A model generated the notes under the pieces. It worked only from the letters and a program-made list of their open reading frames with translations. It made no database searches and was not told the DNA's origin. DNA of 64,000 nucleotides from Eledone cirrhosa. Taxonomy: Eukaryota. Position numbers and translations under genes: made by a program. Where the stretch lies: the NCBI GenBank assembly GCA_964016885.1, contig OZ024752.1:37758001-37822000 (forward strand). The letters run 5' to 3'. Of this stretch, positions 15,178 to 50,889 are shown in pieces (position 1 is the stretch's first letter; the number at the start of each line of letters is the position of its first letter).

Positions 15178-15212
15178 CCTTAAGTTTCAAGATAATATCT
15201 CTTCTTCAGAGG
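15178..15212 (-). ncRNA. Minimal hammerhead-like motif in UCP4 intron 2 (sense strand)
   Basis: CCT-CTGAAGA-A-GAGAT(ATT)ATCTT-GAAACTTA-AGG. Confidence 0.55.
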
Positions 15213-15721
15213 GAAGTAAAGGGGTTAATCCAGTGTTCTAATTAGCTTGCCAAGTCATGCTGACAGGAAATAGTATATATATATATATATAGTAATAATA
15301 ATAAAATTGAAGACTAAAATCCAAAGAGGGCTCGATAAGGAAAATATATATCAAATATATAAGAACCGTAGAGCAAATATTTATTTTAATAAATATATAT
15401 ATATATTTCGAGGTTCAAATTCGTCTACGGAACAGGTTTGGATTTTGAAATTTAAATCTGTCCAGGAATCATGGCCGTTGCCAATATAAGCTTGTCTTTA
15501 TTGACTTATATCGAGACAGACAAATTGTATTCACTTTAATTAGTTTATTTCATTAATAGCTAACTTTGTCTGTTGCAATGTAAACACGTTTCGTGTTTAT
15601 CATATATTTTAATGTATATATATATACACGGAGACACAAAGCAGAATTTGTTTACAAATGGCTAGCGAATTTGAAAATTGCGTAGTAACATGTGCTTACA
15701 CCATAAGCACATGTTACTACG

Positions 15722-15756
<35 letters not shown>

Positions 15757-16084
15757 CACAGTTCAAGAGTAACCAATCTTAAAGAGAGAGATGGAGATAG
15801 GAGAGGAGAAGAGAGATTGGTGAATTAGTTAGAGGCCAAAGCGTGAAGGCATGTGCTCAATGTGCAATATGCAGTGGAAGGCAGCAAGGTGGCTGGGTTC
15901 ATGCAGAGGTTAGAGAGCTGGAAATATTCATTAGTTAAGCAAAACAAGACCCCAAATTTCACAAGGAAGACATTATTAAAAGATTGTCAACATAGTTTTA
16001 GTTTAATGTAAGGAATGTAGAGAATAAAATTTGTGGTCTTGTTTTGCTTAACTAATGAATATATATATATATACATACATGTGC

Positions 16085-19000
16085 TGTGGGCCTCACACTA
16101 GCAGGGATCACGGCAGTGGGCCTCACACCAGTGGGCCTCAGACCAGTAGACCTCACACCAGTGGACCTCACACCAGTGGATCTCACACCAGTGGACCTCA
16201 CACCAGTAGGCCTCACACCAGCAGGGATCATGCCAGTAGACCTCACACCAGTGGACCTCACACCAGCAGGGATCATGCCAGTAGACCTCACACCAGCAGG
16301 GATCATGCCAGTAGACCTCACACCAATGGGCCTCACACCAGTGGACCTCACACAAGTGGACCTCACACCAGTGGATCTCCTACCAGTAGACCTCACACCA
16401 GCAGGGATCATGCCAGTAGACCTCACACCAGTAGGCCTCACACCAGCAGGGATCATGCCAGTAGACCTCACACCAATGGGCCTCACACCAGTGGACCTCA
16501 CACAAGTGGACCTCACACCAGTGGATCTCCTACCAGTAGACCTCACACCAGCAGGGATCATGCCAGTAGACCTCACACCAGTAGGCCTCACACCAGCAGG
16601 GATCATGCCAGTAGACCTCACACCAATGGGCCTCACACCAGTGGACCTCACACAAGTGGACCTCACACCAGTGGATCTCCTACCAGTAGACCTCACACCA
16701 GCAGGGATCATGCCAGTAGACCTCACACCAGTAGGCCTCACACCAGCAGGGATCATGCCAGTAGACCTCACACCAATGGGCCTCACACCAGTGGACCTCA
16801 CACAAGTGGACCTCACACCAGTGGATCTCCTACCAGTAGACCTCACACCAGCAGGGATCATGCCAGTAGACCTCACACCAGTAGGCCTCACACCAGCAGG
16901 GATCATGCCAGTAGACATCACACCAGTGGACCTCACACCAGTAGGCCTCACACCAGCAGGGATCATGCCAGTAGACCTCACACCAGTAGGGATCATGCCA
17001 GTAGACCTCACACCAGCAGGGATCATGCCAGTAGACCTCACACCAGCAGGGATCATGCCAGTAGACCTCACACCAATGGGCCTCACACCAGTGGACCTCA
17101 CACCAGTGGACCTCACACCAGTGGACCTCACACCAGTGGATCTCCTACCAGTGGACCTCACACCAGTGGACCTCACACCAGTGGACCTCACACCAGTAGA
17201 CCTCACACCAGTGGACCTCACACCAGTGGACCTCACACCAGTAGACCTCACACCAGTAGACCTCACACCAGTGGACCTCACACCAGTAGACCTCACACCA
17301 GTGGACCTCACACCAGTGGACCTCCTACCAGTGGACCTCCTACCAGTGGACCTCACACCAGTGGACCTCACACCAGTGGACCTCACACCAGTGGATCTCC
17401 TACCAGTGGACCTCACACCAGTAGACCTCACACCAGTGGACCTCACACCAGTGGACCTCACACCAGTGGACCTCACACCAGTGGACCTCACACCAGTGGA
17501 CCTCCTACCAGTGGACCTCACACCAGTGGACCTCACACCAGTGGACCTCACACCAGTGGATCTCCTACCAGTGGACCTCACACCAGTAGACCTCACACCA
17601 GTGGACCTCACACCAGTGGACCTCACACCAGTGGACCTCACACCAGTGGACCTCACACCAGTAGACCTCACACCAGTAGACCTCACACCAGTGGACCTCA
17701 CACCAGTGGACCTCACACCAGTGGACCTCACACCAGTAGACCTCACACCAGTGGACCTCACACCAGTGGACCTCACACCAGTGGACCTCACACCAGTGGA
17801 CCTCACACCAGTGGATCTCCTACCAGTGGACCTCACACCAGTGGACCTCCTACCAGTGGACCTCACACCAGTGGACCTCACACCAGTGGACCTCACACCA
17901 GTGGACCTCACACCAGTGGACCTCACACCAGTGGACCTCCTACCAGTGGACCTCACACCAGTGGGCCTCACACCAGTAGACCTCACACCAGTGGACCTCA
18001 CACCAGCGGACCTCACACCAGTGGACCTCACACCAGTGGACCTCACACCAGTGGACCTCCCACCAGTGGACCTCACACCAGTAGACCTCACACCAGTGGA
18101 CCTCACACCAGTGGGCCTCACACCAGTGGACCTCACACCAGTGGACCTCACACCAGTGGACCTCACACCAGTGGACCTCCTACCAGTGGACCTCACACCA
18201 GTAGGCCTCACACCAGTGGACCTCACACCAGTGGACCTCACACCAGTGGACCTCACACCAGTGGACCTCAAACCAGTGGACCTCACACCAGCAGACCTCA
18301 CACCAGTGGACCTCACACCAGTGGACCTCACACCAGTGGACCTCACACCAGCGGACCTCCCACCAGTAGACCTCACACCAGTGGATCTCCTACCAGTGGA
18401 TCTCCTACCAGTGGACCTCACACCAGTGGACCTCACACCAGTGGACCTCACACCAGCGGACCTCACACCAGCGGACCTCACACCAGTGGACCTCACACCA
18501 GCGGACCTCACACCAGTGGACCTCCCACCAGTAGACCTCACACCAGTGGACCTCACACCAGTGGACCTCACACAAGTGGACCTCACACCAGTGGACCTCA
18601 CACCAGTGGACCTCACACAAGTGGACCTCACACCAGTGGACCTCACACCAGTGGACCTCACACCAGTGGACCTCACACCAGTGGACCTCACACCAGTGGG
18701 CCTCACACAAGTGGACCTCACACCAGCGGACCTCACACCAGTGGATCTCCTACCAGTGGACCTCCTACCAGTGGACCTCACACCAGTGGACCTCACACCA
18801 GTGGACCTCACACAAGTGGACCTCACACCAGTGGGCCTCACACAAGTGGACCTCACACCAGTGGACCTCACACCAGCGGACCTCACACCAGTGGATCTCT
18901 TACCAGTGGACCTCACACCAGTGGACCTCACACCAGCGGACCTCACACCAGTGGATCTCCTACCAGTGGACCTCCCACCAGCGGACCTCACACCAGTGGA

Positions 19001-22000
19001 TCTCCTACCAGTGGACCTCACACCAGTAGACCTCACACCAGTAGACCTCCCACCAGTGGACCTCACACCAGTGGACCTCACACCAGTAGACCTCACACCA
19101 GTAGACCTCACACCAGTGGACCTCACACCAGTAGACCTCACACCAGTGGACCTCACACCAGCGGACCTCACACCAGTGGACCTCACACCAGTGGACCTCA
19201 CACCAGCGGACCTCACACCAGTGGACCTCACACCAGCAGACCTCACACCAGTGGACCTCACACCAGTGGATCTCCTACCAGTGGACCTCACACCAGTGGA
19301 CCTCACACCAGCGGACCTCACACCAGTGGACCTCACACCAGCGGACCTCACACCAGTGGATCTCCTACCAGTGGACCTCACACCAGCGGACCTCACACCA
19401 GCGGACCTCACACCAGCGGACCTCACACCAGCGGACCTCACACCAGTGGACCTCACACCAGCGGACCTCACACCAGTGGACCTCACACCAGCGGACCTCA
19501 CACCAGTGGGCCTCACACCAGTGGACCTCACACCAGTGGGCCTCCTACCAGTGGACCTCACACCAGCGGACCTCACACCAGTGGACCTCACACCAGCGGA
19601 GTTACACCAGTGGACCTCACACCAGTGGGCCTCACACCAGTGGACCTCACACCAGTGGACCTCACACCAGTGGACCTCACACCAGTGGACCTCACACCAG
19701 CGGAGTTACACCAGTGGACCTCACACCAGTGGACCTCACACCAGTAGATCTCCTACCAGTGGACCTCACACCAGCGGACCTCACACCAGTGGATCTCCTA
19801 CCAGTGGACCTCACACCAGCGGACCTCACACCAGCGGACCTCACACCAGTGGACCTCACACCAGTGGACCTCACACCAGTGGATCTCCTACCAGTAGATC
19901 TCCTACCAGTGGACCTCACACCAGCGGACCTCACACCAGCGGAGTTACACCAGTGGACCTCACACCAGTGGACCTCACACCAGTGGACCTCACACCAGTA
20001 GACCTCACACCAGCGGAGTTACACCAGTGGACCTCACACCAGTGGGCCTCACACCAGTGGACCTCACACCAGTGGATCTCACACCAGTGGATCTCCTACC
20101 AGTGGACCTCACACCAGCGGACCTCACACCAGCGGACCTCACACCAGTGGACCTCACACCAGTAGACCTCACACCAGTAGATCTCCTACCAGTGGACCTC
20201 ACACCAGCGGACCTCACACCAGCGGACCTCACACCAGTGGACCTCACACCAGTAGACCTCACACCAGTGGACCTCACACCAGTGGACCTCACACCAGTGG
20301 ACCTCCCACCAGTGGATCTCACACCAGCGGACCTCACACCAGTGGACCTCACACCAGTGGACCTCACACCAGCGGACCTCACACCAGTGGACCTCCTACC
20401 AGTGGATCTCACACCAGTGGACCTCACACCAGCGGACCTCACACCAGTGGACCTCCCACCAGTGGATCTCACACCAGCGGACCTCACACCAGTGGACCTC
20501 ACACCAGTGGACCTCACACCAGCGGACCTCACACCAGTGGACCTCACACCAGTGGACCTCACACCAGTAGACCTCACACCAGCGGACCTCACACCAGCGG
20601 AGTTACACCAGTGGACCTCACACCAGTGGACCTCACACCAGTGGATCTCCTACCAGTGGACCTCACACCAGTGGACCTCACACCAGCGGACCTCACACCA
20701 GTGGACCTCACACCAGCGGACCTCACACCAGTGGATCTCCTACCAGTGGACCTCACACCAGCGGACCTCACACCAGCGGACCTCACACCAGTGGACCTCA
20801 CACCAGCGGACCTCACACCAGTGGACCTCACACCAGCGGACCTCACACCAGTGGACCTCACACCAGCGGACCTCACACCAGTGGGCCTCACACCAGTGGA
20901 CCTCACACCAGTGGGCCTCCTACCAGTGGACCTCACACCAGCGGACCTCACACCAGTGGACCTCACACCAGCGGAGTTACACCAGTGGACCTCACACCAG
21001 TGGGCCTCACACCAGTGGACCTCACACCAGTGGACCTCACACCAGTGGACCTCACACCAGCGGAGTTACACCAGTGGACCTCACACCAGTGGACCTCACA
21101 CCAGTAGATCTCCTACCAGTGGACCTCACACCAGCGGACCTCACACCAGTGGATCTCCTACCAGTGGATCTCCTACCAGTGGACCTCACACCAGCGGACC
21201 TCACACCAGCGGACCTCACACCAGTGGACCTCACACCAGTGGACCTCACACCAGTGGATCTCCTACCAGTAGATCTCCTACCAGTGGACCTCACACCAGC
21301 GGACCTCACACCAGCGGAGTTACACCAGTGGACCTCACACCAGTGGACCTCACACCAGTGGACCTCACACCAGTAGACCTCACACCAGCGGAGTTACACC
21401 AGTGGACCTCACACCAGTGGGCCTCACACCAGTGGACCTCACACCAGTGGATCTCACACCAGTGGACCTCACACCAGTAGATCTCCTACCAGTGGACCTC
21501 ACACCAGCGGACCTCACACCAGCGGACCTCACACCAGTGGACCTCACACCAGTAGACCTCACACCAGTGGACCTCACACCAGTGGACCTCACACCAGTGG
21601 ACCTCCTACCAGTGGACCTCACACCAGTGGACCTCACACCAGCGGACCTCACACCAGTGGACCTCACACCAGCGGACCTCACACCAGTGGACCTCACACC
21701 AGTGGACCTCACACCAGTGGACCTCACACTAGTAGACCTCCTACCAGTGGATCTCACACCAGTGGACCTCACACCAGCGGACCTCCCACCAGTGGATCTC
21801 ACACCAGCGGACCTCACACCAGTGGACCTCACACCAGTGGACCTCACACCAGCGGACCTCACACCAGTGGACCTCACACCAGTGGACCTCACACCAGTAG
21901 ACCTCACACCAGCGGACCTCACACCAGTGGACCTCACACCAGTAGACCTCACACCAGTAGACCTCACACCAGTAGACCTCACACCAGTGGACCTCACACC

Positions 22001-22209
22001 AGTAGACCTCACACCAGTGGACCTCACACCAGCGGACCTCACACCAGTGGACCTCACACCAGTAGACCTCACACCAGTGGACCTCACACCAGTGGACCTC
22101 ACACCAGTAGACCTCACACCAGTGGACCTCACACCAGTGGACCTCACACCAGTAGACCTCACACCAGTGGACCTCACACCAGCGGACCTCACACCAGCGG
22201 AGTTACACC
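16085..22209. repeat. 15-bp minisatellite (consensus CCAGTGGACCTCACA), ~400 units, in UCP4 intron 2
   Basis: Direct tandem periodicity; variant units GGGATCATG, GATCTCCTA and 14-nt GGAGTTACA. Confidence 0.99.
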
Positions 22210-23881: not shown

Positions 23882-24127
23882 GGGCTTCGCGTAACATTCC
23901 ATATTTAAGTAAGTAAAAGTAAATATGTATGGATAAATGATAGTGTAAATACTGTCCGGGTAAAGATTATAGAAAGTCTCTGGATATGTCAGTTATCAAT
24001 ATGGCGTTCTATCTTACTACATGGTTGCATACCGGATCTTAATTCATAATAAAGAAAACGAATTGATCCTTTTCTATTAATCCAGGGAATTGAAAATTGG
24101 GTAACAGGGTTTATAGACTGAAAACTG

Positions 24128-26930: not shown

Positions 26931-27094
26931 AGGTCTTCTGTATTATATATATATGTGTGTGTGTGTGTGTAGCTACAGTTACAGGCAGTGTGCTGTTCAA
27001 AGCATTCAATGCTGTTACGAGGTCTATCTTGTGTTTGGTTGTATTCCAGAGTTAAGACAGTTGTGGTGTGCAGAGTGTAAATAAAAGTCACTGT

Positions 27095-27158
<64 letters not shown>

Positions 27159-27492
27159 AACGAGTAGGACCCCGACGGCTGAGCTCAAGCCATTTCGACA
27201 GCTAATTCTGGACTAAAAAGATTTTAGTCCAGAATTTAGTCGAAATGGCTTGAGCTCAGCCGTCGGGGTCCTACTCGTTCCTATTACCCACTCTACTACC
27301 CTAAATATTGAGTACTTTGGTGCGTTATGGTCCATCTGGTTCCTTACCACATTTCTTCGTTATATATATATATATATATATGTAAAAGTAGGTTGGATCG
27401 AAGTCACTGTTGCAGCATATATATAAACTTTATTGGCATACTCCAATCATTTCAATATTGATCAGCTCAGGGTTCAGTTTTAATGCCAATAA

Positions 27493-27527
<35 letters not shown>

Positions 27528-27567
27528 GATATTAAATAAATTGAAACTATATTTATAAAACCATATT

Positions 27568-27632
27568 TATTTCATTATACATATTTCAGGGATACCAAAT
27601 TAAAATATGGTATGCCTTCATCAGACAAAATA
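27568..27632 (-). ncRNA. Minimal type-I hammerhead ribozyme motif (intact core)
   Basis: Minus strand reads TATTTTGT-CTGATGA-AGGcATACCA/TGGTATcCCT-GAAA-TATGTA-TA-ATGAAATA; stems I and II pair. Confidence 0.7.
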
Positions 27633-27791
27633 CAATATATAAACAGTTTTATAAATAGACATTGACGTACCCTATTAAATGCAACCATTATTTTTGGAAG
27701 CTGTCTGGACAACTATCCAGACAGCTTCCAAAAATAATGGTTGCATTTAATAGGGTACGTCAAAATTATTTATAAAACTGTTTATATATTG

Positions 27792-27856
27792 TATTTTGTC
27801 CGATGAAGGCATACCATATTTTAATTTGGTATCCCTGAAATATGTATCATGAAATA
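27792..27856 (+). ncRNA. Hammerhead motif, mirror copy with core substitution (CCGATGA)
   Basis: Palindromic partner of 27568-27632; U4->C change in the catalytic core. Confidence 0.55.
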
Positions 27857-28266
27857 AATATGGTTTTATAAATATAGTTTCCATTTATTTAATATCGTAT
27901 ATATATATATATATATATAAACTTTATTGGCATTAAAACTGTACCCTGAGCTGATCAATATTGAAATGATTGGAGTATGCCAATAAAGTTTATATATATG
28001 CTGCAACAGTGACTTCGATCCAACCTACTTTTACATATATATATATATATATATATATATAACGAAGGAAATGTGGTAAGGAACCAGATGGACCATAACG
28101 CACCAAAGTACTCAATACTTAGGGTAGTAGAGTGGGTAATAGGAACGAGTAGGACCCCGACGGCTGAGCTCAAGCCGTTTCGACGGCAAATTCTGGACTA
28201 AAATCTTTTTAGTCCAGAATTAGCTGTCGAAATGGCTTGAGCTCAGCCGTCGGGATCCTACTCATT

Positions 28267-28344
<78 letters not shown>

Positions 28345-30488
28345 GATCATCATCATTTTACATCTGTTGTTCCATGCTTGCATGGGTTTGGCGGGTCTTT
28401 CTCAGTACAGCATCTCTCCACTTGTCATCTCCATAAGCTTTAGCAATCTTCAATCAGCTCTCATAACTTCTATCCAGGTCTTCCTTTACCGCGTCCTCCC
28501 TCCACTGGGATTACATGGCATTTCTTCATATATATATATCATCATCACCATCGTTTAACGTCCATCTTCCACGCTAGCATGGGTAGGACGGATTGTCCCT
28601 TTGTTAGGGATAAGGTCGGGGACCGTGATTTGCTCATTCGGAACTGATTTGGCCTGGTTTCTGCAGCTGGATGCACTTCCTAACACCAACCACATTCACA
28701 GTGTATCCTGGGTGCTTTTTGCCGCGTTCCCTACACAACCACTTTACAGTGTGGACTGGTGCTTTTGTCATGACACCTACACAACCACTTTACACAGTTA
28801 ACTGGGTGCTTGCTTTTGTCATGACACCTACACAACCACTTTACAGTTGACTGGGTGCTTGCTTTTGTCATGACACCTACACAACCACTTTACACAGTTG
28901 ACTGGGTACTTGCTCTTTTCATGACACCTACATGCCCACGACAGTAGGCTGGGCTCTTTTGTCGTGACTCCAGCAGGGATCAATTTATAGAGGAAGTTGG
29001 GAACTTGGGTGAGGCGGGGAAGAAGCCTGGGAAATTGGGAACGTAGGTATAAGGGAGGTTTATAGGAGGGGAGATGGTAGCAAATGGTGTCATATATATA
29101 CAGAGACAATCCCCCACCATCCCTACCTCAATAATATATGCCTGGGCAATACAGGAGAAAGAGATTTCTCTGACATGCAGAGATTTCTCTGTATGCCTCC
29201 ACATGGTCCCAGCAGACAGACTGTTAATCTGTTTGCCAACCTTTAGCAAGGCTTAGACTAATGAGATAACAAGGTAGGCTAAATCCTCAAGGCATGGTTT
29301 CTACTACAAACACTATCACTTCTGCTCTGTAAAATGATAAGATATAAATATAAATCTAATTTGAACAGCTGAATGACATCTAGATAATACACAAAATAAC
29401 AAAGTTCAAACTAATTGTCTTAATATGTATGAAAATCTTCAGACAGCTTTTATTAATTTGTCGTCATCATCATCATCTTTTACATTGACACGACAATCTC
29501 TCCTGTCTAACCCATGGATACAACAATGAATGCGGGACAGACTCTCTATCTGATCTCACACAATGCCATTGACATAACAAAAAGCACTAGGTCCACCCTG
29601 TATGCTGATTCGGTGTCACAACAACAAAAGCACCAATTTCATCCTGTATGGTAGTCATGCTGGAGACATGACAAAAAGCACCCAGTCCACTCTGTAAAGT
29701 GGTCGTGTTGGTGATATGACAAAAAGCAGCCAGTCCACACTGTAAAGTGGTTGGCACTGGGAAGGGTATCCAACCAAGCCAAAATACAGATCCATATGAG
29801 CAAGGTGGGTCTCCAGATTTGATAACCTGTTTAACCCATGCAAGCAAGGAAAAATAGATATTAAATTATGATGATGATGATGATGATGCCTTTCAAAAGC
29901 TGGCCTGATTAGCCACCAATGAATTCAAAAGGCCAAACAAAAAGTTGACTACAGTAAGTGCACCACAATAGGTAGCGTAACACAGTTCACAAGGGAAGAT
30001 CTGCAAATCTATTGGTAGATATAAAATACACATCAGCATATTGATGTGTATATATATATATATATATATTATATTATATTTAGAGTTATAAACTCAAACA
30101 GTCTTTTACAATTAATTAGCTCAAAGAAAGAAGCATTTCCGAGCCGTATTGCCAATATGGGTTTGTTTTTATTGATTTATTATTTTAATAATAATAATAA
30201 TAATGAAATTATTGTGTACAGTGCTCAGGTGCACTACAAATGGTGTCATATATATAGCAAATGGTGTCATATATATACAGAGACAATCCCCCACCATCCC
30301 TACCTCAATATATTTATTTGAATTAGTTTATTTCATTCTAGCTAAATTGGTCATTTGCAATACAAACACTTATGTGTTTATCATATATTAATTTATATTA
30401 ACTTGTATATATATATATATCATCATCATCATTTCATTTTACGTCCGCTTTTTCCCTGCTTGCAAGGGTATATATATATATATATATA

Positions 30489-30675
30489 TTTTATAGAAGG
30501 AGCTTCTACAGGACTAGTACTGTTTTATTCAGATGAAATCTTCCTGAAGATTTCATCTGAATGAAACAGTACTAGTCCTGTAGAAGCTCCTTCTATAAAA
30601 TAAAAAAATTTTACTCTGCCATGTATTGAGTACCTTACTTACTGTGGTTATCCCCGACTCAACCCGGGACCTACG
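30489..30675. repeat. Short foldback element whose inversion axis coincides with a hammerhead core
   Basis: Arms 30489-30600; CTGAAGA at 30544, GAAAC at 30563; 3' tail ACTCTGCCATGTATTGAGTACCTTACTTACTGTGG nearly identical to the 35240 copy; bounded by (TA)n. Confidence 0.8.
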
Positions 30676-33640: not shown

Positions 33641-34081
33641 CACAGCAATTTTTTAAATACTTTTTAAAAGACTTGCTGAGGAAATTAGTACCACACTTAC
33701 TTTATCAATTCCTCTACTGAATAATCTGGTGTATAACTATCACTCATACCCGCCCTAACCCAGATTTCTGAGCTGTATTTATAAGTAAACACATTTGTTT
33801 TCTTCCACGGTAGTTAACTATATTGACTGTCACAAGATATATCCATTGACGCACGAAACGGTCTAATGACTACACTTCTAGTTTAATTACTGAAAATCGG
33901 AATGTTTTATGTTTTATTTTTAGATTTCACTTATATTTTCCTATTAGAAGCATTGTTCTTATAATTATCATTTTAATGCCCTGAGCATTAAAAGGATAAT
34001 TATAAATAATCATGAAAATACATTATGAGCTCAATTATCTAGTATCATTTTAATTATTCTGGCAGGTACAGGATACAACAA

Positions 34082-34118
34082 CCAGACATGTTTCGATTAT
34101 ATTAGATCTCTTCAGCGA
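34082..34118 (-). ncRNA. Minimal hammerhead-like motif upstream of UCP4
   Basis: CTGAAGA-GAT(CTAATATA)ATC-GAAACATGTC; palindromic ACATGT stem III with GUC triplet; stem I weak. Confidence 0.5.
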
Positions 34119-35180
34119 AGCATAGACTTCACTGTACTTGCCGACGTTGTGATTAGAGAATCAATATGTATATGTACAATATTATGTAAGAGTTGGAATA
34201 GACAATAGCATATTTAACAGAATAAATTTGTATTTAGCCCTAGGTAGGCTTTTTTTTTTTTTTTTACTGTTCCTTTTTATGATAGCAGTATATGATGTGA
34301 CGGAAATTTCGCTGCTATTTCTAGCAGGTCATTTGAAGGTAAGTAAAGCGGTTTCCTTGTTAACATGAGAAATTATAATTTTTATTTCATAGATTTGATA
34401 AACACGACTTTCGGCTCAGACAGATGCACACATACAGGGGCGGCGAAAGCATTTCTGAATATTGGTAGTGATGGAGGTGTGGTGGGAGGTGGAGGTGTGT
34501 GTGTGGGGGGGGGGGGGTTAGTAATTGTGATTAGTTTAGCTCTTTGCACTCTAAAATGTCAAGAAAATGCAATTTGAGTTCAAGGAGGTCATATTACATT
34601 TACAACTTTCAATAATCATAAAGTGATTATAGCAAAATGACCTATGAAATCTGTCTCTGAACACATACTAGCAATTGGCAAATAGTGATATGTGGAGAAA
34701 AAGTTATGACATGACAAAAAAAAATTATTATGAAGGTTAACATAATATATTACACTGTTATTATCAAATATCAACCAAGGTATAAAAGAAAACTTCGATA
34801 TGCGATAAACATAACATGTACATAAATTGTAGCACATTTTACAAATAGATGTGTTTTGGTAGTTTAGGGAGAAAAATGTGATTATTGCACATACACACCC
34901 CTACCCCCAGTTCCACCGACCCTGATTCATCACGGAAAAAAACCCCAGTTGATGGATGTGAATCCGAAATATATAGGGACTATTAAATCTCTCCCAAGGT
35001 AACTCTCTCTTGTGTTGTTATTTTTATTTTTATCCTTTTACTCTTCCCTCCATTCTACACATCTCACACATCTTATACACACCACGCATCTCAACGTACA
35101 CCCACTTACATCTCTCTCTCCACCACCGGACCTTGTTACCCGGAGATTTACCCATTTGCATTGTCGAGGCTTCCAAACGA

Positions 35181-35239
<59 letters not shown>

Positions 35240-35240
<1 letters not shown>

Positions 35241-35430
35241 AGTTTTAATATAGAAAAGCTTCTACGGGACTAGAACTGTTTCATTCGTGAGAAATCATCA
35301 GCCTGATGATTTCTCACAAATGAAACAATTCTAGTCCTGTAGAAGCTTTTCTATATTAAAACTTTTATACTCTGCTATGTATTGAGTACCTTACTTACTG
35401 TGGACACCCCCGATTGAACCTGGAATAACT
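35240..35430. repeat. Second copy of the short foldback hammerhead-core element
   Basis: Arms 35240-35364 centred on C35302; CTGATGA begins immediately on both strands; same 3' tail as the 30489 copy. Confidence 0.8.
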
Positions 35431-35487
35431 TATATATATATATCAATGATATTAAATAAATGGAAACTATATTTATAAAACCATATT

Positions 35488-35548
35488 TATTCTATTATAT
35501 ATATTTCAAGGGTACCAAAATTTTGGTACGCTCTCATCAGATAAAATA
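35488..35548 (-). ncRNA. Minimal hammerhead ribozyme motif
   Basis: TATTTTAT-CTGATGA-GAGcGTACCAAAATTTTGGTACcCTT-GAAA-TATATA-TA-ATAGAATA. Confidence 0.72.
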
Positions 35549-35657
35549 CAAAGTTTGTTTTATAAATATTGACATATCCATGAAGAAGATCTTAACAGTT
35601 CAAGTTGTTCCTGGATAGTAAAAGGAAAGATCCCTTTTGCTTATATATATATATATA

Positions 35658-36048
35658 TATATTAATAAAAGGAATTCCAACTTTGTCTGATTTACTCGTT
35701 TTATTTACAATCCTTTAACATTTATAATGGTATTATAATGAAATAGTATGATAGAATATTAAATGTTAAGTGTTAATTGAACAAGTACTTTCATGCTTTC
35801 GCAATCTTCAGGTTCATAATGTGTGGTGCCAGTCGAGTTTACAATTTTCAACTGTTGAAAATTGCAAACTTGACTGTCACCACACATTATGAACCTGAAG
35901 ATTGCGAAAGCATGAAAGTACTTGTTCAATTAACACTTAACATTTAATATTCTATCATACTATTTCATTATAATACCATTATAAATTTTAAAGGATTGTA
36001 AATAAAACGAGTAAATCAGACAAAGTTGGAATTCCTTTTATTAATATA
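35658..36048. repeat. ~390-bp foldback palindrome next to (TA)n
   Basis: Near-perfect inverted arms centred on T35853. Confidence 0.97.
35890..35928 (+). ncRNA. Minimal hammerhead ribozyme motif (identical mirror copy on minus strand at 35778-35816)
   Basis: TGAAC-CTGAAGA-TTGC(GAAA)GCAT-GAAA-GTAC-TT-GTTCA: 5-bp stem I, GNRA-capped stem II, palindromic AGTACT stem III. Confidence 0.75.
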
Positions 36049-37688
36049 ATCTTCTATACACAATCATACACACCCGTGTATATTTATCTATCTATATATA
36101 TAGATATATATATACAGAGAGTGAGAAAGAAAGAGTGAGAGAGTATTGTAGTTCTATACATATGTGCACATGTCAACTATTCGAACACGATCCACTGGAT
36201 ATGCAACAGAAGTAAAATGAACGCCGAAGCTCGGATGAACTGAGAGAAAAAAAAACTGGCCATTAGAATAGAATTGCGTGTGTGCAGACACTTTCATAAA
36301 AACCTAGTCAAGGGGAGGTAACCAGATTTGTATGTATGGGTGAGTGTACAGCGTATGATAGTTTATGCGCGTGTGCGAGTTGGTATTTTCTGGTTGTTGC
36401 CCCGAGCAGACGAAAACTATTCTCTGTTCAACAAATCCATTCAAAGAGTTTGGGCCTATCTCGATCTTCAGGTTATCTCAGTGACAACTTCCTAACCATA
36501 GAGCCACGTTAAAATATATATAGGGTTATTAATAAATAAATATATATATATATTGATATTTTTTAATCAAGTTTTAATATATTGTAATCCTTACAAGATA
36601 AAATCAAAGCTAATTATATATATACACATATATATATACACACACACACACATATCGTCTGCCTGTCACACACCTCGTGGATTGTCTCTCGCTGTCGACA
36701 ACTGGTCGCAGGTCTGTCCTGTGAGGCATTTTTAGCCATCGCTTTCTTTGACGGCATTTTGCTGTTCTAACGATGAGTTTTCTCATTTATATATATATAT
36801 ATATATGCATACATATTCTTTGTTTATGTTCATACACAGAACGGGAAAACGCTAACTTTGGTTTCAATATCTAGTAATGATCATCTCCCCAGACTGTACA
36901 CAGTACAGGGAGGTGGCCTTGAAAATTAAGGTACCCTTTTTTTTTTTTTGTTCTGAGTATGAACATAAATATATAAAAAAATATATATATACATATATGC
37001 GGGTACGAGACTATGCACAATATATACGTATGTATATGTACCAGAATCGAACATGCTTCACTAGATTTATAACGACGAGTAACTGAACGACGAACACCGG
37101 ATGATTTCAGAGAAAAACTGAGCACAGGAAGATAAATGCGTGTGTGTAGATATTTGGTTCAAATGTAGTCAAAGGGGAGATAATCAAAATAAATCTTATG
37201 CAGTCAACTGTCGTCTGTTAAACCTGTTAAAGCTCCTTGAAACTGATAATAACATACATTTGTAGCAATTGAATGAATTAGAAAAGTTTGAGTGTTAATA
37301 GTTGGATGGAGACTCGATGATTTCACCATTTACCCTCGTTATAAACCCCGTATAACATACCACTGTCAGTGACTCTTGTCTTTTCCAACATCCAAGATTA
37401 ACAGAATAAACTTCTGAAATAAAATGTTTTATAAAACTACCACAGAATTATAATTATTTTTACCTATATAAAATTACTTGATGTCACCCACAGTGACAAA
37501 TATATACACTCCCCAAATATACCCGTTTTATGACGACAGAGAGAGAGAGAGAGAGAGAGAGGGGGGAGAGAGAGAGGTAATATATTAGTATATTCTGTGA
37601 GAATCCTACCGTAACCCATTCAGATGCAATAACTTGTAAGGAACAAAATTTGTTGATAAGTGTTTGCTTTCTCCATCGTAAATTTCTG

Positions 37689-40475: not shown

Positions 40476-40609
40476 AGGTAGATCAGGAATAGAATGCTAT
40501 CTGCCTCTGTATTTGAAGGAGACATGTGTAAATCAATTAAATAATGTATTAAAGCTGGGACAAGGGCAAAGAGTTTTGTGTTATTATCAGAGAGGCCTAC
40601 AACAACCTA

Positions 40610-42430
40610 GCCCACCAACATCTCAACGACAACAGTCTCTACTCGGAAGTCACTATAATTACACCTGCGTTGATAGAAAACCGGATCAACACCGCCTGGA
40701 CCAAAATCTGCGACCGACGAAGGCTCCCGAAGGGATTCCGGTATAATTACATAACGAGAAACAGCAGGCTGCCTAACTTCTACCACCTGATCAAAACTCA
40801 CAAAGAAGGACCCGCCCTGAAAATTAGACCCATTGTCTCCAGTGTTGAAGGACCATTTTATAAAATCTCTTGGCTTCTGTCCAAGGTTTTAAAGCCCCTG
40901 TTGACAACCTTCCCTGGCCACGTTTACAGCTCGGATGATGTTATCCACCGACTTAACCAACTAGAACTTGACACCTTCAAATCCAACAGGTACGCCTTCA
41001 GCCTAGATGTAGTATTCCTCTACACATCGGTAACTGCACTCCCGGCAGTGGACATACTCACTGAATGTGTCGGTTTCAGCGACCTGGATTGTAAACAATG
41101 CCTTTTTCAACTACCTGGGTCAAACCTACCGACAGACCGCTGGACTGCCCATGGGATCCAGCCTCCCGGGTTTACTGGCCATTTTCGAATCTTCCAACAA
41201 TGTTGACAATAACATCAAGTTCAGCATTGAACATCCCACCGACTCCGGGTCCCTCGCCTTACTCGATTTCAGACTGAACATCTCTGATAGCGGTGATATC
41301 CACACCGATTTCTACCGCAAAGCGACCAATAGGGACCTGTTTGGGCATTACAAATCTGCCCTCCCCAACAGCTCTAAAAGAAGGTACACCTTCAACGAAA
41401 TGGCTCGCATACACAACCAATGTAGTGACGCTGCTAATAGAACCACCCATACCAGACGATTCGACAAAGAACTAGACATTAACAGCTATCCAGCTTCCTT
41501 CTCCACTCCACTATGAAACCCCAGATCCAGAGACCGGACCAACACAAACAGCAGTTGCTTCTTCAAGATCCCACATCCAGCGAGGAAACCACCAACGCCA
41601 TACGCAAAGCCATCAGAAGAGAGGGCCTCAATATCAAACTAGTTCACTCTGGACCTTTCCTGCGCAGATGCCTCTCCACAAGACAACACCCCAACGTGGA
41701 TAACGGATGCACCCTAGAAATTGCCCCATCTGCAACACTATTTGGTGCTTACGTACCTACGTAGTATACTGGCTAGAATGTAACAAGTGCAATCTATTTT
41801 ACATAGGCAACACTATTCGACCGTTACCCCCCCCCCCCCCCCCCCCATTAAACAGCATGTTAACACCAACTCCTCTTCCTTCCGCAAACACATCATCAAA
41901 TGCGGAAACCGGACAACATTGCCACCACAATCTTAGCTACCGAACGCAGTATAGGCACGCTGAGAATTAAGGAAGCTCTCTTAATCAAGCAATTAAAACC
42001 TAGGACCAATAATCGAATGGAAAGAAGTGCACCAGAATGGCTAATTTAAAAGCCTGTATTCCAACATCCCAGCGGCCAGTTTCATTCTTTCTTTCAAATT
42101 AAATCTATGTCCTCACTAAGCAAACACTACACACATACACATATTTCCCGTTTTATTATATACATATTCGCACACACCTTTGACTACATAAACTTACATT
42201 CATGTACACATATACAAAGATCCCACTAAGCACACTTACATTCACGCACACACATACACATATCATACATTTCACAACGCGCACGTTCGAAATTATAACG
42301 TCTTTTCATTTCATTTCACTTAAATCTGCTCTTCAAACAAGCAAATCAACTCTGATCGATCTTTTAAGTCTCTTAAGGATACTCCTTTGATAATGGGTTT
42401 TTAAACATGAAAATATTTCGGATTATCAAA
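40610..42430 (+). mobile_element. Decayed Penelope-like retroelement (RT + GIY-YIG endonuclease)
   Basis: Frameshifted segments LPNFYHLIKTHKEGPALKIRPIVSS, SLDVVFLYTS, YRQTAGLPMGSSL, IKFSIE..LALLDF..TDFYRKAT and VVYWLECNKCNLFYIGNTIRPL; YVDD region absent; decayed hammerhead-like motif at 42383-42422. Confidence 0.9.
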
Positions 42431-42920
42431 TTTGCTAAGGTAAGATTCTTTGTTATCTTAGCAATCTTGATTTTCTTTCTAATGCATTGTATGGTTTTCA
42501 AAATGATTTAAATTTGTGTTTCATATGTATGTGTGTGTGTGTGTTTGTGTGTGTGTTGTACTATGAAAACAAAAGACCAAGTTTAGTGGTTAATCAGTTC
42601 ATTATTTTACGATCGTTTCGGTGGATTGGCAGTATCGGAAGAGAGTCGGACGCCATGCTTTCCAGCAGAGTTACGTCCCTTTGCGGTCTGAGTTCAAATC
42701 CTGCCGAGGTTAACTTTGCCTTTCGTCCTTACGGGTCGATAAAATAAAGTACCAGTAATGTACTGAGTAATTGCTGGCCTTGTGCCAAAAGTAGAAACAA
42801 TTATTTTACGATCGTTTCAGAAAGTTGATCTTGATAAATCGACATAGTGACTAATTGATAGTAGTTATGTAACTCTACATCATTAGTCTCGATACTCCAG
42901 ATCATTCTTACCGTCTTAGA

Positions 42921-42966
<46 letters not shown>

Positions 42967-43023
42967 GACTGCCAAGACTGGAATTGAACCATCAGCACAG
43001 TTGAGGTATGTCAGACATCAATT

Positions 43024-43089
43024 TATTTTATCTGATGAGGACGTACTGATGAAATAGCTCAGTACCTCTGAAATATGTATAATAAAATA
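43024..43089 (+). ncRNA. Minimal hammerhead ribozyme motif
   Basis: TATTTTAT-CTGATGA-GGAcGTACTGA/TCAGTACcTCT-GAAA-TATGTA-TA-ATAAAATA; perfect 8-bp stem I. Confidence 0.75.
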
Positions 43090-43422
43090 TATTTGATCAC
43101 ATAAATGTCTATATTTATTAATATTTTGAAGTAATCATCATCATCATCATCGTTTAACGTCCATCTTCCACGCTTGCATGGGTTTGGACAGGAGTTTTCC
43201 CACTTGAGGCAAGATTGGTTGTCCTGCTCGTATAGGACTGTCTGGCGGGTTTTCTACGGCTGGATGCCCTTCCTAACACCAACCACGTTTACAGTGTGGA
43301 CTGGGAGGTTTTTACCGTGTTACCTACACGGCCAATATATATATATATATATATACGTTTCGGACATAAGCCCTTCTTCACGCGAAAAGTGTGTGGGAAG
43401 AGAGTTCCAAGGGTGTGTAAGA

Positions 43423-43662: not shown

Positions 43663-44070
43663 TTATGTAATAAACAACATAAGATAATTATTTCATTTAC
43701 CAGTGGTTTCTTGAAACCAAACAAATCTGCTTTCAGTCATCAGAATGAAAAAATCCTGGTCTACATAACTATTAAGCTCTGTAAGCTACATAGAGCACTC
43801 TTTTTTCCTGGACCTTTCCGACAGAATTACTTCATTTATATATATTGTTTATAGTCTTAATTAATGGCATCTAACTTTCTGTTTTTGCCAATTAAATATA
43901 CATTTATTTACATTGTTTTAGTTGTTTATTTCTATAGTTCTTAATTTGTCGACTAGTTTTACTACATTGAGTTACTAGGGTAATATACTTCAGTGAGAGA
44001 TCGAACCCAGGTAAACTTTTCTATTGAATGGAAAGCGATTGGGTAATTTCTGGCAACGTCAGCATCGTTA

Positions 44071-44082
44071 CAAAATGGCGGC
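44071..44082 (+). promoter_or_regulatory. YY1-type promoter/initiator motif of the TMF1-like gene
   Basis: CAAAATGGCGGC in a locally CpG-richer segment ~1.6 kb upstream of the ATG-bearing exon; candidate donors follow (AG|GTTTGT ~44113, CAG|GTAACA ~44178). Confidence 0.55.
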
Positions 44083-44824: not shown

Positions 44825-44877
<53 letters not shown>

Positions 44878-45728: not shown

Positions 45729-45831
45729 ATGAGTTGGTGGGATTCACAGAACTTTGCTGACTTAGCTTCTAATGCATTGAGAAATGCACAGAAAAAAATT
45801 GATAAAGTACTTGATATTCAAGATGAAAAAG
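45729..45831 (+). CDS. TMF1: TATA element modulatory factor 1 (golgin TMF), first coding exon
   Basis: MSWWDSQNFADLASNALRNAQKKIDKVLDIQDEK matches the conserved TMF1 N-terminal MSW...A..AL..AQK.ID.VLDI motif; acceptor TAG at 45692-45694, donor G|GTAAA. Confidence 0.9.
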
Positions 45832-46377
45832 GTAAACAAAAAGGTTAGTCTATGTTTTATCTCTTTAATTCATACACCACAACATGAGGTCAACTTTGTC
45901 TTTCATCCATTCGAGGTCTATAAAAAAAAAGTATCAGCCTAGTACAGGGGTTGATTCTTCCTCTATATCTCTTTCTCACTTCCTCTCTCTCACTTTCTAT
46001 CTTTCTCTGGAGGACATCTGCTGTGTTCAGATCTGGAGAGGAATGGGTTCTGCCAGGCTTAAAAATTCCCAAGAAACACTGCATGCTATTGCAGCACCCC
46101 TACAACTCCATCAGGAGTTATGGGTCCATCCATTCATCAAAAGCCATTTTCCTTCATCTATTTTCAGTGTTCACGTAGCTATAGGTGAATGCACATGGCC
46201 TAGTGGTTAGGATCTTGTGCTTTTGATCTTAAAGTTGGTGTTAGATTCCCTGAACAGTTGGCACATTAAGTCCTTGAGCAAGACACATCATTTCATGTTG
46301 CTTTAATTCATTCAGTTGAAAATTAGTACCTCTAGCAGCAGCTGGGAGTTTACCTTGTTATGGATTGGTATCATGTC

Positions 46378-46725
46378 CACATTTACAGTGTGAAGTGGGT
46401 GCTTTTTGTCGTGACACCAACACAACCACTTTACAGTGTGAACTGAACACTTTTTGTTATGACACTAACACAACGTCTTTACAGTGTGGACTGGGCTCTT
46501 TTTGTCATGACACCAACACAACCATTTTACAGTGTGGACTGGGCACTTTTTGTTATGACACCAAGACAACTACTTTACAGTGTGGACTGGGCACTTTTTG
46601 TCATGACTCTAATACAACCACTTTGCATTGTGGACTGGGTGCTTTTTGTCGTGTCACCGAAACAACCACTTTACAGTGGGAACTGAGCACTTTTTGTTAT
46701 GTCACCAACACGACCATTTTACAGT
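46378..46725. repeat. ~48-bp tandem repeat of a dispersed repeat sub-unit (ACTTTACAGTGTGGACTGGG...TTTTGTCATGACACC)
   Basis: About 7 diverged units in the TMF1 intron; similar units at 28735-28930. Confidence 0.88.
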
Positions 46726-46866
46726 TTGTAAAAATTTGTGAACTATTCTCTAAAGCAAGAATTTCTTTTATTCTAGAAAATTGTAATTATAGTTTAGTGT
46801 TTTTTCATAAATTTATTTGTGTTTTAAATTCTACTAAATGTATAATTTTTTATTCAATTTTTATAG

Positions 46867-48867
46867 ATCCTAGATCTTCAAAAAAAGAGTTAGACGACTC
46901 CAGTTGGTCGACTTGGCTTCCTTTTGATCATGAGAAATTAACTTCACCTCGTAGTTCTTGGTCCTTGCCATTTGGTTTGAAAACCGAACCTGAAAATGAT
47001 AGCTTTTTCACCCAACAACCAAGTTCACCTGTCACACAACAAGCTCCAAAACAGACCAACTTACCTGTCATTTATCCTACTTCGTCTTCTTCTGAGAAAG
47101 AGATATTAACTCAGACGGAAGAGACAAGTGAAGAACTAAAAGGTGACATTTCTCAGCATACTAATTCGGAAGCTGACACAGGTAATCATCAGGATAAAGT
47201 TGAAGTAGACCAAACAACTTTAGAAGCTTTAGACGAAAATAAAAGTAAGAAAGATGAAAATATCTCATTATTTGATCCAAAAGAAAATAAAATGGAATCT
47301 CCCAAAGAGGATTCCTTTGTAGATATTTCTTCAGTTGGATCGAGTAACATTTCATTCGATAGTGAAAAGTCTAATTTACATGGACCTGAATTGGCAGAAG
47401 AAAGTAAATCAACCATGAATATAACTTCCCCTGCATTTGAAGAGATGTCTTCAAATGTAGACTCATCTATAGAGATTTTAAAAAGTCCTACTGAATATGT
47501 TCAACAAAGTTCATTTGAAGAGCTAGAATCTGAGGTAAAATGTGATGATAAGAGAGAAAGTGTACCTGATTATGAGAGTTCTCTTTTAGCTGTATGTGAA
47601 AAGACTGATTCCGATAACATTGAGAACTCACTTCAAGCAAATGATTCTTATTCAGAGCCTACAGATTCAAAAGACAATAATAGCAAATCATCTCATCAAA
47701 GCTTTCATTCTGATCAGAATAATGTGGAGCCCTCTGATTTAGATTTACAAAATGATGAACCTGTGGAAATTGAAAACCAAATACTGGAGCCTTCAAACAA
47801 TTCCTATGATAAAAATGAAAATGCTGGAGTTGAGTTGAATGCAGAATGCAATACTGCTAGTGGTACTGATGTTCAATCCTGTGATAACTCAGATCAGGTG
47901 GATATTACTTGTGAATCTTTAAATAGTTTTCAAACTATAGTTAGATCACAAACAGACAGTAATATAACTAATGAATCTGATGTAGTGGAGGCTGTTGAAA
48001 GCTGTGATATAAGTAGATTTACTCAGTCTTCCCCTCAAACCGAAATGGATCCTTCACCTCCTTTAGCTTCTGAATCGGTCGATGGAACTTGCCTCGATAC
48101 GCTTTCAGAAGAAGAAGAAAAATCGCAAAGAGACAATGAAAAGTGTTTAAAAGAAGATTCTGAAACATCTTTAAGTAACAAACAAGATCTTGAAGAATAT
48201 AGTCAGTTAAGTCCAATTGTGGAGGTAATGGAGGAAAGTACCAACAAGGCAGATTGTTATGAAAGTAAAATTGACAGCAGTGCTAATACAAGCAGTTGTT
48301 CTTCTGAGACTGTCATAGAGAAGGTTTCTACGAGTACAGAAACTGAAGGAAAACAAGAACTAGAAGCTACTGGTACAGAGAGTATCATGTCTTCCTCTTC
48401 CAATAGTTCCTATGTAAAATGTCTGATAGAAGAAGCTATGGAAGAGGCTCGTTCTGAGCACAGTGATAGCCATTCAAATTCAGCTGACCGATCAGAGAGT
48501 TCTAAAACAGAGTCAGAGCATAATAGCGAAAAAAGTGTTAGCGGCCATGACTCTGGAGATGAAATAGACACAACAACCTCATCAGATATTGAAATAATAT
48601 CTACGCCGACACCGAATGGGGAGCGTGGTGAACGTTTGTTTGATTTATCTCCCTTACGAATAACATTACACAAAAGCTTACGCCGGCACAGTCCTGTCCA
48701 TGCCCACCAACGATCAGATAGTCAATCAAGTTCTAGTACGTACAGCAAATGTGGAGAATCCGAGCAATTAAGTCCAGGGCGTGATAGTTTAGAACGACAA
48801 GATCTAGAATCTGGAGATGAAAGTAAAGATGGTGCTACAGCTTCGGTTAAAGAAGAACCAAATAGTG
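46867..48867 (+). CDS. TMF1: TMF1 large acidic/Ser-rich exon (2001 nt, phase 1-1)
   Basis: TTATAG acceptor, G|GTGAGT donor, open frame continuous with the previous exon; includes SGHDSGDEIDTTTSSDIEIISTP. The first ~167 aa of track ORF 46365..48917 are intronic. Confidence 0.88.
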
Positions 48868-49999
48868 GTGAGTACCTCTTCAATATTCATGGTCGATTGA
48901 TAGAATCGGTAGAGTGACAGACAAAGTGCCATGTGGCATTTAGTTGGGGGGGGGTCCTTTATATTCTGAGTTCAAGCCCTGCCAGTATCAACTTTACCTT
49001 TCATCCTTCCTTCCATTATTATCATCATCATCATCATCATCATCATCAGTGCGGTGGATTGGCAGTATCGGTAGAGCAGAGGGCAGTGTATTAGCCATAT
49101 AGATAGAACATCAGACAACATATAGTTATACCCCTTTATGTTCTGAGTTCAAATCCTACCGAGGTTAGCCTTGCTTTTCATCCTTACAGGGTCAATAAAA
49201 TAAAGTACCAGTAATGCATTGGGGTCGATTTAATCGACTTTACCCTGCTCCCAAATTGTTAAGATTTTTACTATGTTGCAAGCAAAGCCCAAATCTACTG
49301 CACCAGGGTCCAAAGACACTCCCTCAAGTTGTCATGCAAACCAGGGAATTAATAACCTTCCTTAGTTTGTATATCTTGTTTTTTTTTTGTTTCTCAACTG
49401 TAAGAAGTACTAGATACTTCTCCTAGTCTGTCATAGCTTCTGAGCTCTATACAGACGTTTAAATTGATTAAATGAATAAATAAGTTATAAATGATAATGT
49501 GACATTTAACATTTATTAAAAAGAACTAAGTCATAGGTATATCACTTATATATTGGTGTTTTATATATTCTAGATTAAGGATATATATATATATCATCAT
49601 CATCATCATCATCATTTTATGTCCGCTTTTCCCTGCTTGAAATGGTGTGGGATGAATTAAAATTTAAACAAAGAATTTCAGCTTTCACCCTATAATTGTT
49701 TCTACTTTTGGCACAGGGCCAGCAATTATCCAGTGTATTACTGGTACTTTATTTTATCGACCCTGTAAGGATGAACTCAGATCGTAAAGGGACGTAACTA
49801 CGCTGGAAAGCATGTCTGACCCTCTACCCTATAATGGGATCTTCTAAGTTTAATCTGTACTAATAATAAATATTTGCTATACAGTTTATATATACTTTTA
49901 TATATATATATATATATATGCAAAAGTTTTATTTAAAATTGTTGGGTTACAACAAGTAAATATTTTATAACTGATATAAAGCACTCAACAAGTTTTGGA

Positions 50000-50034
<35 letters not shown>

Positions 50035-50086
50035 CCTTATTGAGCCCTCTTCAGATTTTGGTCTTCGTAATTATTATTGCTATACA

Positions 50087-50241
50087 TACCGTAATTCCCG
50101 GCGTCGAGGACGCACCCTAATTTTGACAACCAAAAAATTTGAGAAAAAAATAATAAGCAACCTTCGGCCTCCAGGACGCATAATAGATTTTTTAGACTTA
50201 TTTTAGGAAAAAAGTACCATCTTCAATACCGGGAAATACGG

Positions 50242-50243
<2 letters not shown>
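50087..50243. mobile_element. pogo/Tigger-type MITE
   Basis: TA-CCGTAATTCCCGG ... CCGGGAAATACGG-TA. Confidence 0.8.
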
Positions 50244-50305
<62 letters not shown>

Positions 50306-50373
50306 GCACACACATATACACACATATATACATACATTACATTATTTACATATTGATATTTCATATATTCTAG

Positions 50374-50438
50374 ATAAAGATTCTTCTGAAGTTCCTTTAG
50401 ATGTGAAAGATGCTTGTCATCCACAAAAATTACTTAAA
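50374..50438 (+). CDS. TMF1: TMF1 next coding exon
   Basis: TAG acceptor, AAA|GTAAGT donor; DKDSSEVPLDVKDACHPQKLLK; phase 1 to phase 0. Confidence 0.8.
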
Positions 50439-50853
50439 GTAAGTAACTGCCATTCTCAAAATATTTTATTATTTTTCCCCCACCAAATATTCATCTCTAA
50501 TATTCCATGCATTTAATTATTTATTTATATGTGATTTCTAATGTTTTGCTTTCACTTCTTTCAATTTTATGTTCTTGAAGTTTGAGTAACTCTTGCAACT
50601 GCTCGTTATTAAATATGCTGACACTTGGCATAAATTACTTCAGTGTAGCATTGAAAAGATTGATTTTATTCCATTGAGGACTGATGTACTATACATGCAC
50701 CTTTGATGAGTTGTAGTGCACCTGAGCACTGTACACAATAATTTCATTATTATTATTAATATTTTCATGTATGTAAAAAAAGCAAATGACACAGAAATAA
50801 ATGACACAAGAAATATATATATTAGTTTAACGCTTGAAATAATAGGAAAAGAG

Positions 50854-50889
50854 TCCTAACGTTTCGGACACTTGTCCTTCATCAGAAGA
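50854..50889 (-). ncRNA. Minimal hammerhead ribozyme motif
   Basis: TCTT-CTGATGA-A-GGAC(AAGT)GTCC-GAAACGTT-AGGA; palindromic ACGT stem III. Confidence 0.68.

Follow-up and report, generated by a model that had tools for sequence, protein, structure and literature searches.

The question raised by a 64,000-nt stretch of the Eledone cirrhosa genome (GenBank assembly GCA_964016885.1, contig OZ024752.1, positions 37,758,001 to 37,822,000 of the forward strand; hereafter the window, with coordinates counted from its first letter) is what its many hammerhead-ribozyme motifs belong to. They lie in short non-coding modules, and a first-pass annotation had taken these for separate non-autonomous, retrozyme-like families mobilised by the enzymes of Penelope-like elements (PLEs). 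The links to (TA)n and to PLEs were borne out, the latter by long copies of four module families (named B, A1, C and D1) that run into PLE reading frames; separate non-autonomous families were unsupported for these four. With a probability of about 0.75, we regard the modules as 5'-shortened pseudo-long terminal repeats (pLTRs) of several coding PLE families, likely formed when enzyme-cut (TA)n primed two run-off cDNAs. Overall, the motifs are real and of a known kind, and they carry a mechanistic signal that can be counted.

As Rfam gave no hammerhead among 150 of the 224 window matches listed, nor for two motifs searched singly, a type I descriptor was used, which was relaxed to allow an extra unpaired base after A9 (PMC4209133) or a U.U closing stem II (PMC7229834). 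With it, nine complete motifs were found in the window, while 200 local dinucleotide shuffles gave 0.025 on average and 1 at most; a stricter descriptor gave four against 0.18 in 200 such shuffles, and bare cores numbered 19 against 5.1. The hammerhead-like motifs in the window are real, and a core, intact or damaged, was present at all 13 places named by the first-pass annotation, apart from differences in coordinate convention. Seven of the eight motifs called intact passed the descriptor (cores at 27624-, 34115-, 35540-, 35811-, 35895+, 43032+ and 50885-, the sign giving the strand), while 15209- failed due to a non-palindromic stem III in the window copy. All four relatives of this copy that were seen (L010, L021, L092, L180) read CCGAAGA at the core, and the perfect core in the window may be a CpG decay product. 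The motif at 30544+, called truncated before, is complete: a 4-bp hairpin forms its stem III, and the predicted cut lies some 15 nt farther along; the ninth motif is a previously unlisted one at 4996- (window 4960-5000, TTGAAAA core). The core at 42387 had been called mutated or truncated and turned out to be a U3-A8 variant typical of its family, with later damage on top; for 27810+, 35303 (both strands) and 43385- the earlier call of a mutated or truncated core holds. At least seven flanking families were found where at least four had been claimed, a (TA)5+ tract is found no more than 200 nt away from 10 of the 13 cores as compared to 30% of random positions, and the decayed PLE expected in the window was located at about 40553-42520.

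The 3' end of every family exists in two forms, one short and the other extended by a tail of 40-90 nt, which in full-length copies leads into the open reading frame (ORF). With short and tailed used in this sense, and arm for each copy of an opposite-strand pair, the modules and PLE remnants of the window are:

15082..15277, minus strand: family F pLTR-like stub, hammerhead core at 15209, damaged palindromic stem III
27154..28271, no strand: 1.1-kb nested palindrome, locus-specific, of stacked stubs (X, Y, A2) parted by (TA)n, centre 27712
27515..27709, minus strand: family A2 arm, complete hammerhead 27568-27632, short 3' end
27716..27897, plus strand: mirror arm of family A2 with a mutated core, CCGATGA at 27810, and the short 3' end
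30480..30675, no strand: family C (Hydra-type) head-to-head insertion, left arm short, right tailed, complete hammerhead 30540-30594 (plus), centre about 4 nt inside the predicted transcription start
34030..34170, minus strand: family E, an old dispersed repeat, weak hammerhead 34082-34118, relatives 72-93% identical over partial matches
34937..35194, plus strand: 3' stub of the family PLE-1, 95% to a copy with an 881-aa reverse transcriptase (RT)/GIY-YIG frame, hammerhead-like fold with the aberrant core CAGTTGA at 34946-34952, missing from the earlier list
35234..35430, no strand: head-to-head insertion of a second family C subfamily, both hammerheads damaged, left arm short, right tailed
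35443..35642, minus strand: Hydra-type arm of family A1, spanning ACTATCC to the short end and holding a complete hammerhead (35488-35548); its partner on the opposite strand, at about 35631-35642, is tail only
35658..36097, no strand: family B (Neptune-type linker) head-to-head insertion, complete hammerheads 35778-35816 (minus) and 35890-35928 (plus), left arm short, right tailed, centre 35853 at the predicted transcription start
40553..42520, plus strand: decayed PLE with broken RT and GIY-YIG frames, 3' untranslated region (UTR) and U3-A8 hammerhead remnant (core 42387-42393)
42964..43134, plus strand: family A3 stub, complete hammerhead 43024-43088
43355..43419, minus strand: stub of family D2, truncated by (TA)n and with a core mutation at C3
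50816..50906, minus strand: family D1 stub, textbook minimal hammerhead 50854-50889 with bulge after A9, G10.1-C11.1 and ACGT palindrome

Exact-pattern searches of the 3.0-Gb genome, in which the reversed-pattern controls each gave 0, led to 6,005 matches for the B core, 5,497 for C, 9,721 for the D-type minimal hammerhead and 1,898 for the PLE-1 core. A pattern for E was too tight and gave a single match. A first look gave 602 candidates for A1 and 7,968 relatives of the window's decayed PLE, some with frames longer than 840 aa. In long B copies the module is preceded by a CCAAT/TATA region and, above it, by an RT plus GIY-YIG frame with a CX4CxxC linker; the 775-aa frame at locus L309 matched RVT_1 with E 2.9e-6 (below Pfam's cut-off) and GIY-YIG with E 3.3e-6. 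At this locus (G000:C1:21871500-21881200) two near-identical full-length B elements stand head-to-head over 8.4 kb; in both, a 476-aa frame overlaps the 775-aa RT/endonuclease (EN) frame, and the junction lies near the predicted ribozyme cut. EN frames of A1 were detected in 6 of 30 loci chosen for upstream sequence (L081, L084, L085, L086, L088, L098), and the RT part at L311; they carry the CxCx5C linker and the CxxC and CRH motifs, next to conserved E and N, of the Hydra-clade definition (PMC8557442) and no CCHH. Family C is linked at L134/L310 to a related frame, which is frameshifted and partly readable, and D1 at one locus (L170) to a CX4CxxC frame assigned by motif reading only. The frames of A1 and C were assigned from their motifs and from the 41% BLASTP match between them, and their placement in the Hydra clade was made by linker motifs and by-eye comparison with the printed Hydra-1_Obim; a Hydra element with hammerhead is on record from octopus (Hydra-1_oBim, File S2; Craig et al., 2021, PMC8557442). 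The order of RT and C-terminal GIY-YIG that defines endonuclease-bearing (EN+) PLEs was recognised by Pfam for B and PLE-1, with one domain each slightly under the cut-off.

A partial tandem of pLTR, ORF and pLTR with the hammerhead in the pLTR was found at L061, L062, L070 and L309. The first two belong to PLE-1, a relative of the window's decayed PLE with frames of up to 881 aa. The decayed PLE is the parent of the 42387 motif alone, and its relative PLE-1 gave rise to the stub at 34937-35194. Pfam gave no match for the broken pieces of the decayed PLE. At L074:169-1331 a minisatellite of about 42-nt units stems from the inner A1 hammerhead region and lacks the CTGATGA core.

The arrangement of the copies was informative on how they inserted. 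Opposite-strand pairs consist of one short and one tailed arm in 15 of 15 classifiable B pairs (19 were found, four with an unclassifiable arm), 16 of 17 C, 10 of 11 PLE-1 and 15 of 16 A1 pairs, with binomial p of about 1e-4 for B (computed for 14/14) and about 3e-4 for C; for the B and C counts, copies needed at least 120 nt of upstream and 200 nt of downstream sequence, and L203-L222 had been chosen as pairs. All four head-to-head insertions in the window (30480, 35234, 35443, 35658) obey the same rule. At six A1 loci the partner arm consists of tail only and does not overlap the main arm, and therefore neither arm templated the other. Inverted 5'-truncated copies, a tail at one end only and insertion into (TA)n or AT-rich DNA are as described for EN+ PLEs, and target-site duplications are hidden because of the (TA)n.

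The 5' ends were mapped for the first 100 B copies on contig C1, selected through a word that lies 71 nt below the predicted cut, which made selection independent of the hammerhead, with position 0 set at one adenine 44 nt above the B core. Thirty-seven begin at -2..+2 (21 of them at 0) and 24 at +3..+12; none begins at -107..-3, 22 are long and run past the reference, and 17 begin lower. Hence 61 of 100 consecutive copies begin within -2..+12 of this adenine, which a TATA box precedes by 31 nt, and the 105 nt upstream hold no start at all; the TATA word stands at -31 in 14 of 14 distinct upstream variants. For C, 18 of the first 25 copies begin at -2..+12, with the boundary at the first base of stem I and a TATA word at -29 in three of three variants. 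Most stubs of the best-sampled family, B, stop at a predicted transcription start, which suggests that they are probably run-off copies of the 5' part of the element's RNA and not a separate ribozyme element. A reading of the A and B boundary as a splice acceptor (CAG) was discarded, since bases upstream of the AG are retained in the copies and the site is absent from C. In contigs of three runs of unspecified kind, the X1 summed depth climbs to 3.6e5-1e6 below the predicted start, from about 1-7e4 above; this is not counted as evidence, since X1 may be the source sample and depth is not copy number.

The following course of events would account for these data. In long copies the sequence above the hammerhead modules leads into RT/GIY-YIG frames, and an RNA polymerase II promoter is predicted in the 3' UTR, with CCAAT and TATA in B and TATA in C, from which RNA would start 44 nt upstream of the hammerhead core in B and 6 nt upstream in C. 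The enzyme would most likely cut both strands of (TA)n; of the two start sites that flank the tail, each resulting end would use one for priming, with one short-ended and one tailed arm as the outcome, in agreement with the Poseidon element in vitro. Priming in the 5' pLTR copy of the RNA would give a cDNA of 40-270 nt ending at the RNA 5' end, similar to strong-stop DNA, and priming in the 3' copy would give the long insertions. The two cDNA ends may subsequently be joined by microhomology or a brief snap-back to a head-to-head palindrome; short palindromes and snap-back additions were indeed detected at the junctions. Stubs formed in this way would lack the upstream TATA box and be mostly sterile by-products, and the ribozymes are predicted to be passengers, most templates being uncut. 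In retroviruses and LTR elements, minus-strand strong-stop DNA arises by priming near the RNA 5' end and is a short cDNA ending at the RNA start. There the primer is a tRNA; here it would be cut genomic DNA, so that the short product becomes fixed in the genome.

A more general statement, for which we see even odds, is that PLEs integrate by two-ended priming with fixed roles, that the commonest product is a strong-stop-like cDNA reaching the capped 5' end, that stubs map transcription starts and that copies beginning at the ribozyme cut are fossils of cleavage in vivo. If so, the transcription start of each family could be read from its thousands of genomic stubs, and ribozyme cleavage in the animal would be recorded by the few copies, L309 included, that start at the predicted cut. 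In young families with intact frames and thousands of insertions, the ends give exact predictions of the RNA start, the start site used per strand and how rarely cut RNA served as template. The origin of inverted, tailed PLE insertions is called an open question in PMC8557442 and PMC11167929, and no paper on start-bounded stubs or fixed-role two-ended priming of PLEs was found in a literature search mostly outside subscription journals.

Several observations weigh against reading the modules as start-bounded pLTR stubs of coding PLEs. Position 0 was chosen with the boundary in view, and the start is a prediction from sequence. The A1 boundary has no TATA box and is blurred (20 of 39 copies at -2..+12, seven at -11..-4, nine lower and three long, in a sample biased to best matches), and D1 shows no sharp wall at all, its 5' ends being scattered 2-148 nt above the core in 18 of 19 copies. 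Only one close pair occurs among the 100 D-type matches listed, and it is on the same strand. Pairs with two short arms exist (L009, L051, L216 and the window's 27712 palindrome), and Poseidon in vitro showed no strand bias of its start sites (PMC11167929), whereas one site per strand is used in this genome. Pfam found no match for the A1 and C frames, A2 and A3 are tied to coding PLEs only via homology to A1, and E, F and D2 are without a traced reading frame. Two further points, the similarity of paired arms and the uneven spread of one B subfamily, touch directly on rival explanations.

The first of these concerns a single cDNA that folds back and primes itself on the antisense template, as in the published model (Arkhipova et al., 2013, PMC3846280), with EN trimming one tail and the boundary being a hot spot of fold-back. 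The palindromes and snap-back additions at the junctions would fit, and the arms within an insertion are more alike than random copies, differing at 1.7 as compared to 5.4 of the 15 polymorphic sites that they share (an 85% filter retained 64 of 74 copies). Four of 15 pairs are identical; five differ at three or more of these sites, which speaks against a common cDNA, and arm similarity does not settle whether one RNA or two were copied. As the six tail-only A1 partners offer no overlap for folding back, many start-bounded copies abut (TA)n at the same boundary without any mirror arm, and the TATA-like spacing recurs in two unrelated families, we consider fold-back improbable. Some families or subfamilies may instead be truly non-autonomous, copied in trans from a promoter-bearing pLTR or from a stub for which (TA)n substitutes the TATA box; pLTRs act in trans in Adineta (PMC3846280), many stubs lie directly behind (TA)n, no ORF was traced for E, F and D2, and one B subfamily, which includes the window's copy, makes up 38 of 79 short (start-bounded) and 2 of 26 long copies (p 1.5e-4). 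Some mobilisation in trans from ORF-less source loci is possible. Yet short and long B copies share alleles and haplotypes, with both alleles at 17 of 18 sites in both classes, most of the common haplotypes occur in both, and 48 of 79 short copies are within one site of a long copy, so that most of B would not form a separate non-coding lineage; moreover, copying in trans would alter the source locus and not the priming mechanism. We therefore hold truly non-autonomous families to be a tentative, minority possibility.

Classical non-LTR retrozymes, in which tandem hammerhead units self-cleave, circularise and reinsert, would also present type I hammerheads in short non-coding units, and they derive from pLTRs (bioRxiv 10.64898/2026.07.22.740005). 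They are very improbable as a source of these modules. No head-to-tail repeat was found in the window or in the 100 matches listed for B and the 100 listed for C, where all neighbours less than 1 kb apart are head-to-head (16 of 16 for B, 18 of 18 for C), and the one same-strand neighbour of D is made of two different subfamilies; tandem units of 150-450 bp, each with a hammerhead, were absent from the sampled copies. The 3' ends fall on two PLE start sites and not on the cut, and only four of 100 B copies, representing three insertions, begin at +70..+76 around the predicted cut at +73 (0.9 expected, p 0.06). L309 is one of these, with arms beginning at about +73 and +81, which is a hint of cleaved template and no more. 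If the modules are pLTR stubs of coding PLEs, as preferred here, most of the hammerheads counted in genomes of this kind are PLE debris and should not be taken for retrozymes.

The folds themselves show the features of minimal type I hammerheads, that is a three-helix core, palindromic stem III and covariation, with compensatory changes between subfamilies. Among 14 A-type variants, hand-picked from different subfamilies, related, and selected on the core, 97.9% of 280 cells are paired as compared to 38-53% in slid controls, and two-sided changes occur in 8 of 20 pairs overall, with 7 of 9 in stem II and 1 of 3 in stem III; the core columns are invariant except N7, as sequences selected on the core would be. 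Read from sequence comparison, this covariation indicates conservation of the stems, not activity. The stem III palindromes differ as a set across loci (TATATA, TATGTA, TACGTA, TGCGCA, CCGG, GTAC, CTAG, CATG, TGCA, CG), as would be expected by analogy with dimer-forming PLE hammerheads. Energy folding recovered stems I and II for A and B; for C, D and E the hammerhead is not the best monomer fold. Cleavage of C as a monomer is nevertheless predicted. The conserved G10.1-C11.1 pair is absent in A, B and C and present in D. In the young PLE-1 family the hammerhead stems are kept around the core CAGTTGA, which has A in place of U4 and U in place of A6 and occurs in 1,898 exact copies; it may be a dead ribozyme or an unusual active variant. 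Reportedly, Lunse et al. in 2017 may already have described some of these core variants.

Compared with the PLE hammerheads of Cervera and de la Pena (2014, PMC4209133), those found here share the CUGANGA/GAAA core, the palindromic stem III, the extra base after A9, the U3-A8 variant, and the occurrence as solo copies and as opposite-strand pairs 100-700 bp apart; they differ in R.U or U.U for G10.1-C11.1 in A, B and C, in the hairpin stem III of C and in CAGUUGA of PLE-1. A U.U at the base of stem II is also present in axolotl HHR_Amex2, which cleaves (PMC7229834). Short non-coding type I units related to pLTRs are likewise shared with metazoan non-LTR retrozymes (Cervera and de la Pena, 2020, PMC7229834; Li et al., 2026, bioRxiv), although those form head-to-tail tandems of 150-450 bp expressed as circles, whereas the modules here are solo or head-to-head and traceable to coding elements. 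EN+ PLEs as described in PMC8557442 and PMC3846280 are alike in heavy 5' truncation, the inverted 5' copy, the tail at one end, (TA)n targets, the pLTR hammerhead and TATA/Inr-like pLTR motifs. Their 5' ends are described as variable, whereas 61 of 100 B copies fall at one TATA-spaced site, and solo pLTRs are ascribed there to recombination or deletion; the tail asymmetry was counted per pair in the present work. The internal, TATA-less promoter of D. virilis Penelope (PMC2377424) is unlike the one predicted here. Anolis Poseidon in vitro (Frangieh et al., 2024, PMC11167929) is alike in two internal start sites bounding the tail, an AT-rich target, cutting and extension of both strands, uncut RNA as the main template and a tail at the ORF start; it belongs to a different clade than the families here with their Hydra-type and Neptune-type linkers. 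Thus pLTR hammerheads, inverted copies, one-sided tails, (TA)n targets and an octopus Hydra element with hammerhead are already in print, and the less ordinary part is the start-bounded B and C copies below a TATA box.

Further observations concern the palindrome at 27154-28271 and the surroundings of the modules. In the palindrome the unrelated stubs A2, Y and X are mirrored jointly around an A-type 5' boundary, and both arms end at the X short end, which could reflect read-through RNA copied from both target ends or an inversion at the DNA level; a second copy or composite mobile unit was not found among the 40 candidates scored out of 1198. Module X (27154-27284 and 28139-28271) is a further family, without a core in the window copies; its long copies (L178, L204, L266, L322) read as a type I hammerhead with the core TTGA(A/G/C)AA or CTGAGAA, a long stem II and a stable stem III. 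Module Y (27385-27496 and 27920-28034) is an old family with 1,198 candidates, whose relatives show CTGATGA about 30 nt upstream and a distant GAAA, not in plain type I order. Two minisatellites occupy 16114-22201 (15-nt unit, 406 copies, internal inversions) and 24127-26931 (35-nt unit, 80 copies). The 865-codon open frame at 46320-48917 (plus strand) is acidic and serine-rich, has no Pfam match and looks like a large host exon, perhaps TMF1-like. Exons of a mitochondrial carrier gene (Pfam Mito_carr) were detected at 5094-5255 and 11548-11700 on the minus strand.

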